Origin: a virus | Reading direction: 5' to 3' (one strand) | UHGV virus genome: UHGV-0117298 | DNA: 10,552 bases | Shown here: piece after piece, positions 1 to 10,044 of the stretch | Position numbering within the stretch: the first letter of the stretch is position 1 | How the letters are laid out: every line of letters starts with the position of its first letter | Made by a program: the position numbers and the translations under genes | The notes under the pieces: generated by a model | What the model saw: only the letters and a program-made list of their open reading frames with translations | Database searches by the model: none | What the model was told of the DNA's origin: nothing

Positions 1-49
1 CCTATTGGATGGCATTCGAAACCTAGTTGTGAGATCACTGTTGAGCACA

Positions 50-607
50 TCATATTCCAAACCCCATTTGCCCCGACTCATCTTCAAGCGGTAAAGGTAT
101 TCTCCCAGAGTAAGTTATGTTCAGATGTTTACAGAAGTAATTCCAATACCCTACCAGGTCATCTGGGTTTATGTCATCTTCGATTGGAAACGCTATTCTA
201 TCACTATAGTATCCAGCTTCTTCATAGTATACATGGTAGTGAGCACCGTAAATGATATCTTGGTACTTCGGATGATCGACCTTGTAACTATTCGTGTGTT
301 TGTCAAAGTGATAGGTATCTACCGCGAAAACCCTCTTGTTATGATAGAAAGCAATAATATTTATTTTAGGGTAAGAAATCGGGTCATCAGGTTCTGAATC
401 CTGATCTGGTTTCCATTTCAGTTCAAACTTTAGCCCTTGTATAGGTATACAATCCTCATCCAAGGGGATGATATGGGCTTGTAGCCACATATCAGAGCGA
501 CTTGGTTTCTGTTTCCATTTAACGCCAGAAAAGTTAACTATTTTTTTACAATAAAGTACTTTATCAACTTCTACTTGGCTTGGCTGATAATCATCTATTT
601 TTGCCAA
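50..607 (-). CDS. Hypothetical protein in the rex position, directly downstream of cI on the same strand; function unknown
   Basis: 185-aa ORF beginning 39 bp after the cI stop on the same strand. First in-frame start is TTG at 605-607, preceded by a GGGCGG purine stretch; next in-frame ATG would give about 145 aa, so the start is uncertain. Visibly AT-rich compared with cI. Rich in Tyr/His/Asp/Glu, no hydrophobic transmembrane stretch. I recognise no similarity to lambda RexA or RexB. Confidence 0.55.
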   Translation of the reverse strand: MAKIDDYQPSQVEVDKVLYCKKIVNFSGVKWKQKPSRSDMWLQAHIIPLDEDCIPIQGLKFELKWKPDQDSEPDDPISYPKINIIAFYHNKRVFAVDTYHFDKHTNSYKVDHPKYQDIIYGAHYHVYYEEAGYYSDRIAFPIEDDINPDDLVGYWNYFCKHLNITYSGRIPLPLEDESGQMGFGI

Positions 608-646
608 TGTTTACCGCCCTGTAAATTGTAGATAAAAGTGGTTTCA

Positions 647-1363
<717 letters not shown>

Positions 1364-1370
1364 TTAAATC

Positions 1371-1434
1371 TATCACCGCAGGGGATAAATATCTAACACC
1401 GCAGATGTTGACTATTTTACCTCTGGCGGTGATA
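1371..1434. promoter_or_regulatory. OR3-OR2-OR1 tripartite operator with divergent PRM/PR promoters
   Basis: Three 17-bp sites: tatcaccgcaggggata (1371-1387), taacaccgcagatgttg (1394-1410), tacctctggcggtgata (1418-1434). PR -35 ttgact at 1408-1413 and -10 gataat at 1431-1436. cro SD taaggagg precedes the ATG at 1461. A few positions in OR3/OR2 and the spacer differ from lambda as I remember it. Confidence 0.85.
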
Positions 1435-1451
1435 ATGACTGTATGTACTAA

Positions 1452-1661
<210 letters not shown>

Positions 1662-1668
1662 GTAACCC

Positions 1669-1714
1669 CGCTCTTTGTAACAACGGACATTCGTCCTACG
1701 TCGCTGAAAAGCGA
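1669..1714 (+). promoter_or_regulatory. nutR-like N-utilisation site (boxA plus boxB hairpin)
   Basis: boxA-like cgctcttt at 1669-1676, followed by a short hairpin tcgct-gaaa-agcga at 1701-1714 with a GAAA(A) purine loop. Position between cro and cII matches nutR. The boxB stem differs from lambda gccctgaaaaagggc. Confidence 0.45.
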
Positions 1715-1799
1715 GCCCCAAGATATCTGACCAACTCAGGCCATATGCGTTTCCACGCATACCAGTCAACTAACTATTCACTATTGGAAATCTTAAGAA

Positions 1800-2096
1800 A
1801 TGGAAAGAACAAGTTACAGCAAACTATCACAGCGTGACGTTGATCGCGCAGAAACAGATTTACTTATCAATCTGTCAGCTATTACCCAGCGCGGTCTGGC
1901 AAAGATGATTGGCTGTCATGAATCGAAGATAAGCAGAACGGACTGGAGATTTATTGCTTCGGTCTTGTGTGCTTTCGGAATGGCATCAGACATCAGTCCG
2001 ATTAGCAGGGCTTTTAAGTATGCGCTTGATGGACTCACCAATAAAAAACGCCCGGCGGCAACCGAGCGTTCTGAACAAATCCAGATGGAATTCTGA
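1800..2096 (+). CDS. cII: CII transcriptional activator (mosaic: divergent N-terminal 79 aa, lambda-identical C-terminal 19 aa)
   Basis: 98-aa ORF between cro and O. The C-terminus LTNKKRPAATERSEQIQMEF matches lambda CII as recalled. The rest is collinear with lambda CII (HTH region ...SKISRTDWR vs lambda ...SQISRWKRD) but substantially different. Weak SD, as in lambda. Confidence 0.85.
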   Translation: MERTSYSKLSQRDVDRAETDLLINLSAITQRGLAKMIGCHESKISRTDWRFIASVLCAFGMASDISPISRAFKYALDGLTNKKRPAATERSEQIQMEF

Positions 2097-3028: not shown

Positions 3029-3726
3029 AAAACATCGCCGCACAGATGGTTAATTTTGACCGTGAGCAGATGCGTCGGATCGCCAACAACATGCCGGAAC
3101 AGTACGACGAAAAGCCGCAGGTACAGCAGGTAGCGCAGATCATCAACGGTGTGTTCAGCCAGTTACTGGCAACTTTCCCGGCGAGTCTGGCTAACCGTGA
3201 CCAGAACGAACTGAACGAAATCCGCCGCCAGTGGGTTCTGGCTTTCCGGGAAAACGGGATCACCACAATGGAACAGGTTAACGCAGGAATGCGCGTAGCC
3301 CGTCGGCAGAATCGACCATTTCTGCCATCACCCGGGCAGTTTGTTGCATGGTGCCGGGAAGAAGCATCCGTTATCGCCGGACTGCCAAACGTCAGCGAGC
3401 TGGTTGATATGGTTTACGAGTATTGCCGGAAGCGAGGCCTGTATCCGGATGCAGAGTCTTATCCGTGGAAATCGAACGCGCACTACTGGCTGGTTACCAA
3501 CCTGTACCAGAACATGCGGGCCAATGCGCTGACTGACGCGGAATTACGACGCAAGGCTGCCGATGAACTGACCTGTATGACAGCGCGAATTAACCGTGGT
3601 GAGACGATACCTGAACCAGTAAAACAACTTCCTGTCATGGGCGGCAGACCTCTAAATCGTGTTCAGGCGCTGGCGAAGATCGCAGAAATTAAAGCTAAGT
3701 TAGGACTGAAAGGAGCAAGTGTATGA
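3025..3726 (+). CDS. P: Replication protein P (DnaB helicase loader)
   Basis: 233-aa product matches lambda P (MKNIAAQMVNFDREQMRRIANNMPEQYDEKPQVQQ...). Start overlaps the O stop; stop overlaps the ren start. Confidence 0.95.
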   Translation: MKNIAAQMVNFDREQMRRIANNMPEQYDEKPQVQQVAQIINGVFSQLLATFPASLANRDQNELNEIRRQWVLAFRENGITTMEQVNAGMRVARRQNRPFLPSPGQFVAWCREEASVIAGLPNVSELVDMVYEYCRKRGLYPDAESYPWKSNAHYWLVTNLYQNMRANALTDAELRRKAADELTCMTARINRGETIPEPVKQLPVMGGRPLNRVQALAKIAEIKAKLGLKGASV

Positions 3727-4013
3727 CGGGCAAAGAGGCAATTATTCATTACCTGGGGACGCATAATAGCTTCTGTGCGCCGGACGTTGCCGCGCTAACA
3801 GGCGCAACAGTAACCAGCATAAATCAGGCCGCGGCTAAAATGGCACGGGCAGGTCTTCTGGTTATCGAAGGTAAGGTCTGGCGAACGGTGTATTACCGGT
3901 TTGCTACCAAGGAAGAACGGGAAGGAAAGATGAGCACGAACCTGATTTTTAAGGAGTGTCGCCAGAGTGCCACGATGAAACGGATATTGGCGGTATATGG
4001 AGTTAAAAGATGA
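3723..4013 (+). CDS. ren: Ren protein (Rex exclusion relief)
   Basis: 96-aa product MTGKEAIIHYLGTHNSFCAPDVAALTGATVTSINQAAAKMARAG... matches lambda Ren as recalled. SD aaggag. Confidence 0.9.
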   Translation: MTGKEAIIHYLGTHNSFCAPDVAALTGATVTSINQAAAKMARAGLLVIEGKVWRTVYYRFATKEEREGKMSTNLIFKECRQSATMKRILAVYGVKR

Positions 4014-5230: not shown

Positions 5231-5397
5231 TTGACCAAAATCGAAGTTACGAACAAGAAAGCGTCGAGCGGGCTTTAACGTGCGCTAATTGCGGTCAGAA
5301 GCTGCATGTGCTGGAAGTTCACGTGTGTGAGCACTGCTGTGCAGAACTGATGAGCGATCCGAATAGCTCAATGTACGAGGAAGAAGACGATGAATGA
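5227..5397 (+). CDS. ninF: NinF (Cys-rich small protein)
   Basis: 56-aa product from the GTG at 5227 ([37 protein letters not shown]...) matches lambda NinF as recalled. SD gagga lies 8-9 nt upstream. GTG overlaps the ninE stop. The track's ATG at 5185 has no SD and overlaps ninE. Confidence 0.75.
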
Positions 5398-6112
5398 GTT
5401 AATAAATGGCAATGCCATCAAAATGACAAGCATTGAAATCGCTGAGTTGGTGGGAAGTCGTCCAGATAACGTAAAAATATCAATAGAGCGCCTGGCTAAA
5501 TCTGGAGTTATTCAACTTCCTGCATTGCAGGTTTTCGAAAGAATCAATAACTTAGGACTGCGCCGTAGTGTCGAGGCTTACGTCTTCGAAGGCGAACAAG
5601 GTAAGCGCGACAGCATTATTGTCGTCGCTCAGTTGTCGCCGGAATTCACCGCTCGTCTTGTTGACCGTTGGCGAGAGCTTGAAGACGCTGCGGTTAATAT
5701 CCCCAAAACGCTACCAGAAGCGTTGCGCCTTGCTGCTGATCTTGCTGAGCAGAAAATGCAACTGGAAAACCAGCTCGCAATTGCCGCACCTAAAGTTGAG
5801 TTTGCCGATCGCGTTGGCGAGGCCAGCGGAATTTTGATTGGAAACTTTGCAAAGGTTGTTGGAATTGGTCCAAACAAACTGTTTGCGTGGATGCGCGATC
5901 ACAAAATCCTTATTGCTTCAGGTTCCCGGCGCAATGTGCCAATGCAGGAATATATGGATCGCGGCTATTTCACAGTGAAAGAAACAGCGGTCAACACAAA
6001 TCACGGAATACAGATATCGTTCACCACAAAAATCACCGGGCGTGGTCAACAGTGGCTGACCAGAAAGCTGCTCGATAACGGAATGCTGAAAGTAACAGGG
6101 GAGGCTGCTTAA
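5390..6112 (+). CDS. Rha-family phage regulatory protein / antirepressor with C-terminal KilA-C (ANT) domain
   Basis: 240 aa. N-terminal region (MTSIEIAELVGSRPDNVKISIERL...) resembles the Phage_pRha domain; C-terminal region (...KVEFADRVGEASGILIGNFAKVVGIGPNKLFAWMRDHKIL...GYFTVKETAVNTNHGIQISFTTKITGRGQQWL) resembles the KilA-C antirepressor domain. Domain calls are from memory of family signatures. Start overlaps the ninF stop. Confidence 0.75.
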   Translation: MNELINGNAIKMTSIEIAELVGSRPDNVKISIERLAKSGVIQLPALQVFERINNLGLRRSVEAYVFEGEQGKRDSIIVVAQLSPEFTARLVDRWRELEDAAVNIPKTLPEALRLAADLAEQKMQLENQLAIAAPKVEFADRVGEASGILIGNFAKVVGIGPNKLFAWMRDHKILIASGSRRNVPMQEYMDRGYFTVKETAVNTNHGIQISFTTKITGRGQQWLTRKLLDNGMLKVTGEAA

Positions 6113-6901: not shown

Positions 6902-7515
6902 TGCGGCTAACTCCAGTATTCAGCATGGTTAACTTCATTAATGACGCGCACTTTCGCCGCGTATGGAGACACCCGAAGAAAACCATCAACTCTAGCCAGA
7001 AAGCATGGGTTCATTACATGTTACAGGTATGGGGCAAGGTTAATACCGGAGATTGCTCTCCAGGTGGTGCAATTAACGTTATCGGTCGTCTGATGATTCG
7101 CAGTCAGTGGAGCGATGACAAGGCTAAGCAGATAGAGTCTGTCGTCATGCGCCTGTACGAAGAAGATGGGCTGCGCGGAGATGAGCTATACAAGAAAGCT
7201 CGCGAACTGGTCATTCCTCAATCATCGTTTAGCCACATCATCACTCTCGCCAAAGAATCAGATGATGCGGCTTTCGTTGAACGTGTGATGGTTAAAACGT
7301 TTCACCGTGAAAGCCCTGTCCGCGATGTAGCTATTAAGCGATATTGCAATCGCAATTGCACGCAAGATATAGCCAGGATTATTTCTTATATAACAGGTGC
7401 TGATATTCAGTATTGTCGTAAGCGAGTGGTGTGGTGTGAGAAAGTGCTGGAGTCAGAAATGTTTTATGCAATGAAACGAGAATTGGAGAAAGAATTTCCA
7501 TTAATAGCGGCCTGA
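6901..7515 (+). CDS. Putative late-gene antiterminator (Q position), family not recognised
   Basis: 204-aa product from the ATG at 6901 (MRLTPVFSMVNFINDAHFRRVWRHPKK...), with SD gggagg 5 nt upstream. Last gene of the nin operon and immediately upstream of a terminator-containing non-coding region and the holin, i.e. the Q slot. Sequence does not match lambda Q as recalled; Cys pairs (CNRNC, YCRKRVVWC) could form a metal site. Confidence 0.5.
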   Translation: MRLTPVFSMVNFINDAHFRRVWRHPKKTINSSQKAWVHYMLQVWGKVNTGDCSPGGAINVIGRLMIRSQWSDDKAKQIESVVMRLYEEDGLRGDELYKKARELVIPQSSFSHIITLAKESDDAAFVERVMVKTFHRESPVRDVAIKRYCNRNCTQDIARIISYITGADIQYCRKRVVWCEKVLESEMFYAMKRELEKEFPLIAA

Positions 7516-8031: not shown

Positions 8032-8247
8032 ATGAAATCAATGGACAAAATCTCAACTGGCATTGCCTACGGCACCTCCGCAGGCAGTGCTGGCTACTGG
8101 TTTTTACAGTGGCTTGATCAGGTCAGTCCGTCACAGTGGGCTGCGATTGGTGTACTGGGGAGTCTGGTTCTGGGCTTCCTGACATATCTGACTAACCTGT
8201 ATTTCAAAATCAGAGAGGACCGGCGTAAGGCGGCGCGGGGAGAGTAA
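8032..8247 (+). CDS. S: Phage-21-type pinholin (class II holin, dual-start S21 family)
   Basis: 71-aa product [71 protein letters not shown] matches S21 as recalled. Has the dual-start motif (Met1-Lys-Ser-Met4), two hydrophobic segments and a charged C-terminus. SD ggcggagg. Confidence 0.9.
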
Positions 8248-8251
8248 AGCG

Positions 8252-9058
8252 ATGAAGAAAAAATACGAACTGGTTGTTAAAGGGATAAATAATTACCCGG
8301 ATAAGATTACTGTTACTGTGGTACTGGAAATTGGTGGGTATCCGTCACTGTTGTTGCCAAATGTGGCGATTAGTCTTGACCGTACTGAAGGTGCCACGCT
8401 GGAGTTTTACGAAGCTGAGGCGAAAAAGCAGGCGAAGCAGTTTTTCATGGATGTTGCTGCCGGGTTATGTGAAGGGAACGAACCGTTGCCGGAAAAGCGC
8501 CCCATAATTTTAGAGGCGCAGGATGTGTTGATAACCTACAAAGGAAAGCTACCGGGAAGAATTACTGGTTCTCTGAAGATGCCGCCGTCAACACTGCGGT
8601 CAGAAAAAGAGGCGTCTTGTCTGCAGTCTGAGTACTCCATTACGGTTAAAAGTGCCGGAGAGGAAGGAAATAAACGTTATTTTATTGCGTCTGCACCTGA
8701 TAAAGATCAGGAATGGGAGTGTAACCGGCCATCCTTTGTTGTATACGGAGATGGCGGGAAAATAACCATCTCAGAAAATGGGAAATTAACACCGCCATCG
8801 CACCAGCATAGTGAGGCGCTCATTGAATTTGCCATTGATTACCTGAAGAACAATAAACAGCAGGGGCTGATGAAGCGCATTGGTCGTTGCATGGGATATC
8901 TGCAGGTAGCAGCTGAGATTGAAATGATGGCCAGTGGTGCTGACAATGATGCAGTTGTGCTGGAGGCTCTTCTGCGTGATTTTGATAATACGCCCTTTAA
9001 GAAAGCACCTGTTGACTGGATGCAGCCGGGGATGACTTATCTGAAAGGGCGTATATAA
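8252..9058 (+). CDS. Hypothetical protein inserted between holin and endolysin; function unknown
   Basis: 268-aa ORF starting 4 nt after the holin stop. The holin's last codons (ggggagag) can act as its SD, so it is probably co-transcribed with the late genes. No signal peptide or TM segment and no motif I recognise. More AT-rich than the flanking lysis genes. Confidence 0.65.
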   Translation: MKKKYELVVKGINNYPDKITVTVVLEIGGYPSLLLPNVAISLDRTEGATLEFYEAEAKKQAKQFFMDVAAGLCEGNEPLPEKRPIILEAQDVLITYKGKLPGRITGSLKMPPSTLRSEKEASCLQSEYSITVKSAGEEGNKRYFIASAPDKDQEWECNRPSFVVYGDGGKITISENGKLTPPSHQHSEALIEFAIDYLKNNKQQGLMKRIGRCMGYLQVAAEIEMMASGADNDAVVLEALLRDFDNTPFKKAPVDWMQPGMTYLKGRI

Positions 9059-9067
9059 GGTGGCTCG

Positions 9068-9382
9068 TTATCTGTTGCTGGATAATCGACTGAAGATGCG
9101 TTCTTTTTGTGTTTTTGCGTAATGATTGTCCCACTCACAATCAAGGTAGCTTAATTCTTCATTCAACCAGTTATTTATATTGGTCTTAATACGCATAAGC
9201 ATGGGCTGTGTTAATGCTCTGGCGATAATGCCGAGAGTCACAGGTGTGAGATGTCCATACGGCTCAGCCTGAATGGATTTTACTGCATCGTGTTCTTGTG
9301 GGAGGAGTAAGAGGCACTCTGATTTTACCCGCTCATTTATGGCTTGCAGGCATAAATCATAATTATGTTGATCGTTATGCAT
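9068..9382 (-). CDS. Hypothetical small protein, convergent with the upstream insert gene; function unknown
   Basis: 104-aa ORF on the opposite strand to the lysis cassette, with a good SD (agagga, 6 nt before the ATG at 9382 on the minus strand). AT-rich. Separated by 9 bp from the stop of the 268-aa gene. No motif I recognise. Confidence 0.6.
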   Translation of the reverse strand: MHNDQHNYDLCLQAINERVKSECLLLLPQEHDAVKSIQAEPYGHLTPVTLGIIARALTQPMLMRIKTNINNWLNEELSYLDCEWDNHYAKTQKERIFSRLSSNR

Positions 9383-9510: not shown

Positions 9511-10044
9511 ATGAACACCAAAATCAAATATGGCCTGTCGGCTGCCGTTCTGGCGTTGATTGCCATCGGTGCGCCTGCGCCTGATATTCTCGACCAGTTT
9601 CTGGATGAAAAAGAAGGTAACCACACAACGGCATACCGTGATGGTGCGGGTATCTGGACCATCTGCCGCGGTGCCACAATGGTGGATGGTAAACCTGTTA
9701 TTCCGGGCATGAAACTGTCGAAGGAAAAATGCGACCAGGTTAACGCCATTGAACGGGATAAGGCGCTGGCATGGGTGGAGCGCAATATTAAAGTGCCACT
9801 GACCGAACCACAGAAAGCGGGTATAGCGTCATTTTGTCCCTATAACATTGGCCCCGGTAAGTGTTTCCCGTCGACGTTTTATAAGCGGCTGAATGCCGGT
9901 GATCGTAAAGGTGCATGCGAGGCGATTCGCTGGTGGATAAAAGATGGTGGGCGCGATTGCCGCATACGTTCAAATAACTGCTATGGACAGGTTATTCGTC
10001 GTGACCAGGAAAGCGCATTAGCCTGTTGGGGGATAGATCAGTGA
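9511..10044 (+). CDS. SAR endolysin (signal-arrest-release lysozyme, T4-lysozyme/GH24-like)
   Basis: 177 aa. N-terminal weakly hydrophobic Gly/Ala-rich SAR segment ([17 protein letters not shown]), then a catalytic-triad pattern E-x8-D-x5-T ([20 protein letters not shown]), as in R21 and P1 Lyz. Stop overlaps the Rz start. Confidence 0.9.

Follow-up and report, generated by a model that had tools for sequence, protein, structure and literature searches.

To our knowledge, RexAB is the oldest known abortive-infection system. It occupies the slot downstream of the repressor gene in lambdoid prophages, and its RexB component spans the membrane several times. The cI-N interval is recognised as a mosaic hotspot and houses both RexAB and BstA (PMC8585504). 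Another relevant precedent is the pair of a HipA kinase and a DUF3037-DUF1829 protein (WP_000210934.1), which is protective in E. coli and was validated in the DefensePredictor study (PMC13092281). Through this system DUF1829, a domain of the PD-(D/E)xK clan, was newly implicated in defence, the DUF1829 assignment in WP_000210934.1 being weak (probability 0.78). The closest match among defence models is PDC-M24 of the PADLOC library; it is itself only a computational candidate, and no paper text names it.

The locus described here belongs to a stretch of 10,552 nucleotides of the virus genome UHGV-0117298 (the window). It carries two genes, called A and B below, downstream of a lambda-type repressor (Table 1), and we consider A-B to be probably a lysogen-expressed two-gene defence cassette, PDC-M24-like, which stands in place of rexAB.

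Table 1. Features of the repressor-downstream region in the window.
Feature	Position	Strand	Remarks
Gene B, start (first 53 nt)	1..53	(-)	Remainder lies outside the window; ATG overlaps the stop codon of gene A in ATGA
Gene A (185 aa)	50..607	(-)	TTG start; product sequence is that of WP_001062368.1; PHROG 2017
cI-A spacer (39 bp)	608..646	(-)	Lambda homology stops with the base that follows the cI stop codon
cI repressor (237 aa)	647..1360	(-)	Lambda immunity; first gene of a presumed PRM/PRE operon
OR/PRM/PR switch region, cI-cro	1361..1460	.	Homology to lambda; PRM role taken from lambda

The first-pass annotation described a 185-aa ORF located 39 bp beyond the cI stop codon on the cI strand. 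The coordinates of both genes agree with this, and the six-frame ORF listing gives the same spacing. The first-pass annotation also took this ORF for a single gene, which turned out to be an artefact: the window ends 53 nt into gene B, so only one gene could be seen. Related loci contain a 250-aa gene B directly after gene A, its start codon overlapping the stop codon of gene A by 4 nt. Such an overlap implies translational coupling.

Gene A starts with TTG (605-607). An in-frame TAA is found two codons upstream, so no earlier start is possible for this ORF. All orthologues examined share the position of the Met-Ala-Lys start, which is encoded with GTG (TTG in E. coli) and with ATG in none of them. 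The ribosome-binding site is weak in the window (a purine-rich AGGGCGG, roughly 8 nt upstream of the TTG) and in the orthologues as well. The simplest reading of the conserved non-ATG start, which this codon usage suggests, would be selection for low expression.

The AT-rich, tyrosine-, histidine- and acidic-residue-rich composition noted earlier is borne out. Gene A has 38.2% GC (36% at third codon positions) compared with 45.8% in cI and 48.5% in the rest of the window, and this low GC (38%) marks the A-B cassette as imported cargo. The product is acidic (pI 5.3; 10.8% Asp, 8.6% Tyr, 4.3% His), with three acidic patches at residues 68, 143 and 174. The absence of a membrane segment stands too, the highest hydropathy over 19 residues being 0.45. 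A 90-aa ORF runs antisense to gene A (125-397 (+)); we assume it to be a by-product of the AT-rich opposite coding strand.

Homologues of protein A form 21 protein clusters (59-99% identity) spread across Enterobacterales, with members in Escherichia, Klebsiella, Salmonella, Yersinia, Buttiauxella and Xenorhabdus, and protein A matches PHROG 2017 with an E value of 6e-67. Synonymous differences are saturated (pS 0.62-0.92) compared with pN of 0.12-0.26, and dN/dS is about 0.1 where it could be computed. Gene A is thus a real gene under strong purifying selection.

The structure model of protein A (pLDDT 82, pTM 0.81) is composed chiefly of beta strands with two helices and has a disordered stretch of 11 residues at its end. 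No fold relative was detected in the PDB. A profile search among 1.84 billion representative proteins yielded no more than 20 hits, which makes this a small family. W31, R92, D97, N106, H123, H125, F158, P173 and Q180 are invariant in members down to 21% identity, with H104 and G121 nearly so. The Arg/Asp/His/Asn/His-x-His polar cluster contained in this set is a likely catalytic or metal-binding site. The C-terminal tail (residues 174-185, LEDESGQMGFGI) is disordered yet conserved and keeps an SGQxG motif, so that it may be read as a docking peptide.

Several weak matches of protein A were rejected. Glutathione peroxidase, the sole match in the NCBIfam scan (E 0.15), is noise, as is NMN adenylyltransferase in the PDB sequence-profile search (E 0.21). 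Designed Kelch-repeat proteins (SAKe6) reached a summed E value of 2e-10 with no stretch significant alone, a repeat-summing artefact.

Positions 1-640 of the window agree fully (100% identity) with loci which hold the complete gene B, whose product (WP_000968518.1) is annotated in related records as a DUF1828 domain-containing protein. It consists of an N-terminal DUF1828 domain (Pfam, 33.5 bits at residues 26-110, above the gathering cutoff of 22 bits) and a C-terminal DUF1829 domain of PD-(D/E)xK fold. The structure model (pLDDT 82) is a soluble two-domain alpha/beta protein, in which the DUF1828 domain is similar to type III secretion chaperones and YbjN, while the DUF1829 domain has the alpha-beta-beta-beta-alpha-beta core of PD-(D/E)xK nucleases. 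PDB sequence-profile searches with protein B gave no match. In the C-terminal domain only G155, S157, G158, P164, T177, G194 and D198 are invariant across distant homologues; H159 and K173 vary. Since the canonical D...(D/E)xK triad is not kept in this domain among the distant homologues, nuclease activity of B is doubtful.

The position of the cassette was compared with that of rexAB by aligning the locus of phage ev017 with lambda (blastn). Homology stops one base past the cI stop codon and restarts where rexB ends, with its stop codon and the terminator that follows; only the flanks align, in agreement with the initial assignment of gene A to the rexAB position and with its reported lack of resemblance to RexA or RexB. 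As lambda homology is confined to both flanks, A-B is an exact swap for rexA-rexB, with 1348 bp replacing a lambda segment of 1399 bp. The terminator scan places the hairpin of this intrinsic terminator directly 3' of gene B, and the same scan located no terminator-like site on the minus strand between cI and A. A PR-like promoter match is present at 1408-1436 (+), and the switch region is the presumed source of a leftward cI-A-B transcript. Judged by this layout and by the known behaviour of lambda, A-B is most likely co-transcribed with cI from PRM/PRE in the lysogen. We do not claim an internal promoter for A-B, as promoter-like matches within or before gene A are no commoner than expected by chance. 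Rfam gave no match in window positions 1-1800.

The segment from cI to cro (646-1675) shares 94% identity with lambda, which makes the immunity that of lambda. Up to base 1057, the 3' part of cI matches ev017-type phages, whose immunity differs, with 99% identity. The segment 1-1057 as a whole has 99.2% identity to phages ev017, ev207, PhiR57_1 and PhiR63_2 and is equally near to prophages of E. coli Nissle 1917, ATCC 25922, ABU 83972, UM146 and many more. Since none of the phage records or complete E. coli genomes searched joins the cassette with a cI of lambda immunity, the window is a recombinant, with the joint inside the C-terminal domain of cI near base 1057.

Two further observations concern other parts of the window. 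Between the P21-type holin gene (8032-8247) and the lysozyme gene (9511-10044) there are two genes, 8252-9058 (+) coding for a 268-aa DUF1327 protein and 9068-9382 (-), a 104-aa ORF without a Pfam match; these look like a cargo insert within the lysis cassette. In the nin region, just after the gene of a NinF-like small protein, 5390-6112 (+) encodes 240 aa that include a KilAC/ANT antirepressor domain.

The first-pass annotation had proposed a survey of what occupies the slot downstream of cI in other prophages. In most of the related loci examined, the A-B pair is located behind a prophage repressor, the repressors having differing immunities. The pair, with overlapping stop and start codons, is kept in Escherichia, Yersinia, Xenorhabdus and further enterobacterial genomes. 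In Yersinia, Xenorhabdus and the further enterobacterial genomes it lies each time directly 3' of an S24 repressor gene (210-237 aa, of differing immunities) and 5' of the N region. Metagenomic relatives of A with 21-28% identity are still followed by a DUF1828 gene, and an S24 repressor gene precedes in two of these loci. The pair persists to about 22% identity. Among the loci inspected, including these distant relatives, we found no A without an adjacent downstream B, and the two genes are always on the same strand with overlapping or abutting stop and start codons. A narrow-alignment search for related loci returned five species loci only.

The pair also occurs in the temperate Pseudomonas phage VB_PaD_phPA-G (PP083311). 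An unannotated ORF (3420-4004 (+) of locus L023) is a homologue of gene A, with the invariant residues of the family and a C-terminus ending in ...GQMGFDV. It overlaps by 4 nt a homologue of gene B annotated as hypothetical, and a gene for a CI-like repressor is located upstream.

Of 5426 complete E. coli genomes, 241 contain the cassette DNA. Each has one copy, located on the chromosome, and all copies have an identity of 99% or more, so the prevalence may largely reflect clonal descent; rexAB is present in 99 genomes of the same set. Nissle 1917, ABU 83972, UM146, APEC O18 and ATCC 25922 are among the extraintestinal and commensal strains that carry the cassette. The Nissle 1917 prophage is defective (truncated integrase, an IS element, left arm lost), yet cI, A and B are retained. 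Seven phage records contain the cassette and correspond to five distinct phages. PhiR57_1 and PhiR63_2, which both carry it, were reportedly isolated by Brenes and Laub in 2025.

For defence functions we used the PADLOC model library and Table S5 of DefensePredictor with its strict cutoff (mean log-odds of 4). PDC-M24 is the only model of the defence library matched by A or B. Protein B matches PDC-M24B over nearly its entire length (E 4.7e-10; residues 2-249 align with positions 4-254 of the 256 in the model), and its distant counterparts do so with E values down to 1.8e-15. The match of A to PDC-M24A is weak (E 4.8e-4, 18 bits, residues 104-163 only). Relatives of A score between E 2e-4 and 4e-3, one of them aligned over its full length. 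A-family scores are marginal overall (15-19 bits). Pfam DUF6978 matches the C-terminal third of A with 22 bits (E 2.2e-4), below its gathering cutoff of 29.6 bits, and similarly weak DUF6978 matches were obtained for five of the 17 family members.

In Table S5 of DefensePredictor the mean log-odds are 4.90 for A and 5.64 for B, both listed as "Predicted novel defense gene" (PMC13092281). Both proteins are absent from the tables of screened and validated units of the same study (PMC13092281). A-B has therefore already been flagged as a probable anti-phage defence by two computational resources, and the idea of a type that had escaped notice is not supported. The proposal that gene A is a defence candidate is credible in the light of these predictions, but not as a single-gene system, since two genes together make up the conserved cassette.

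DUF1828, DUF6978, PDC-M24 and both WP accessions occurred in no relevant main text in our literature search. Nor did the search find any report of an experimental phenotype of A-B (the 2025 work of Brenes and Laub lay outside it). Bury et al. (2018; PMC5987069) reported that "phage repressor pr" (EcN_1294) of a Nissle prophage protects K-12 against lambda and Stx phages. EcN_1294 is a cII-family gene of the same Nissle 1917 prophage (locus L002, 6775-7071), and not cI or the cassette. The qPCR and cloning primers of Bury et al. map to positions 6972 and 7078 of this locus; as they target the cII gene, the protection observed is uninformative on A-B.

How such a cassette could work may be outlined as follows. 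A and B would act as one translationally coupled unit, placed between cI and the shared terminator where rexA-rexB would otherwise be. Expressed with cI in the lysogen, the unit would counteract other phages by abortive infection or by an attack on nucleic acid. B may serve as a sensor or holder by means of its DUF1828 domain, similar to secretion chaperones and YbjN; the disordered SGQxG tail of A may dock there, and infection would free an effector activity. Candidates for the effector are the Arg/Asp/His/Asn/HxH site of A and the PD-(D/E)xK-fold domain of B. The TTG or GTG start together with the weak ribosome-binding site would hold a potentially toxic pair at a low level. A narrower version can be put forward only tentatively, and we regard it as rather unlikely in all its details: A would be an enzyme of a previously unseen fold, with its Arg/Asp/His/Asn/His-x-His site as the effector. 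The chaperone-like domain of B would restrain A by its tail and let it go once B senses an infecting phage, which would make the pair a mechanistically new two-component immunity. Were this so, a RexAB alternative linked to repressors would be widespread from enterobacterial lambdoid phages to D3-like Pseudomonas phages.

Other explanations were weighed against the defence cassette. The pair could serve the phage life cycle or host physiology (induction, lysis-lysogeny, DNA processing, fitness or virulence) and not defence. Other roles have indeed been tied to genes of this slot, BstA having first been linked to virulence phenotypes (PMC8585504), and extraintestinal and commensal strains often carry the cassette. 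We nevertheless hold this explanation to be unlikely: the association with repressors of many immunities, even in a Pseudomonas phage, argues against a host-specific physiological role, and both defence predictors flag the pair. It is quite unlikely, too, that A-B is a toxin-antitoxin-like addiction module which stabilises the prophage, even a defective one, and has no real anti-phage role. The two genes are small and translationally coupled, the conserved weak start codon suggests tight dosage control, and the decayed prophage of Nissle 1917 has kept the cassette along with cI, all of which would suit a module of this kind. However, neither protein matches a toxin or antitoxin family or contains a DNA-binding antitoxin domain, and the slot is the classic exclusion location. 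Besides, this explanation overlaps the defence reading, as many toxin-antitoxin-like pairs are defence systems.

We give very little credence to the idea that A alone is the superinfection-exclusion or abortive-infection factor, with B dispensable. It draws on the stronger candidate active site of A, where R92, D97, H104, N106, H123 and H125 are conserved to 21% identity. Against it stand the presence of B immediately downstream of A in every locus inspected, to about 22% identity, and the coupling implied by the stop/start overlap. The possibility that ORF 50..607 is a chance frame or what is left of a decayed housekeeping phage gene retains practically no probability. The non-ATG start, the low GC and the hypothetical annotation could have pointed that way, but genes from different genera agree in length, start position and C-terminus, and the PHROG 2017 match is strong. 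The 21 homologue clusters, the confident structure model and the low dN/dS with saturated synonymous sites contradict and refute it.

The position and likely role of A-B are unsurprising and its kind, repressor-linked prophage defence cargo, is a familiar one; it is the proteins that are uncharacterised. A and B are without a characterised relative, and A is without a recognisable fold. The cassette constitutes a clean natural allele of the RexAB slot, more frequent in the complete E. coli genomes than rexAB itself (241 versus 99 of 5426), and its carriers include the widely used strains Nissle 1917, ATCC 25922 and ABU 83972. If A-B is protective, it would add a new defence mechanism, might explain part of the phage resistance in probiotic and pathogenic B2-type strains and would provide an experimental anchor for the PDC-M24, DUF6978, DUF1828 and DUF1829 families.

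Compared with the structural relatives of its two domains, protein B is distant: identity to type III secretion chaperones and YbjN and to the PD-(D/E)xK nucleases Can2, NgoMIV and PspGI is only 7-16%, and B has no secretion-system context. The HipA system shares with A-B the DUF1829 domain in its second protein, but the partner is a kinase and not a member of the A family, and the N-terminal domain is DUF3037 and not DUF1828. BstA of the Salmonella prophage BTP1 is similar to A-B in its location after a prophage repressor, in a presumably shared promoter and in its link to repressors in many lineages (PMC8585504); it is however a single protein and A-B consists of two genes, which match only the PDC-M24 models. 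PDC-M24, with a DUF6978-like A and a DUF1828-like B, has the same gene order and similar protein sizes. The A family forms a small, separate branch, and the match of A is marginal.

RexA-RexB of lambda and A-B have no sequence similarity and differ in domain content. The rex genes are 15 bp apart, whereas A and B overlap, and A-B has no RexB-like membrane component, A being devoid of a hydrophobic segment and B being modelled as soluble. Yet both are pairs of genes on the repressor strand, presumably transcribed in the lysogen from PRM/PRE, and they occupy the same slot, with the 3' end of cI and one common terminator as its borders.
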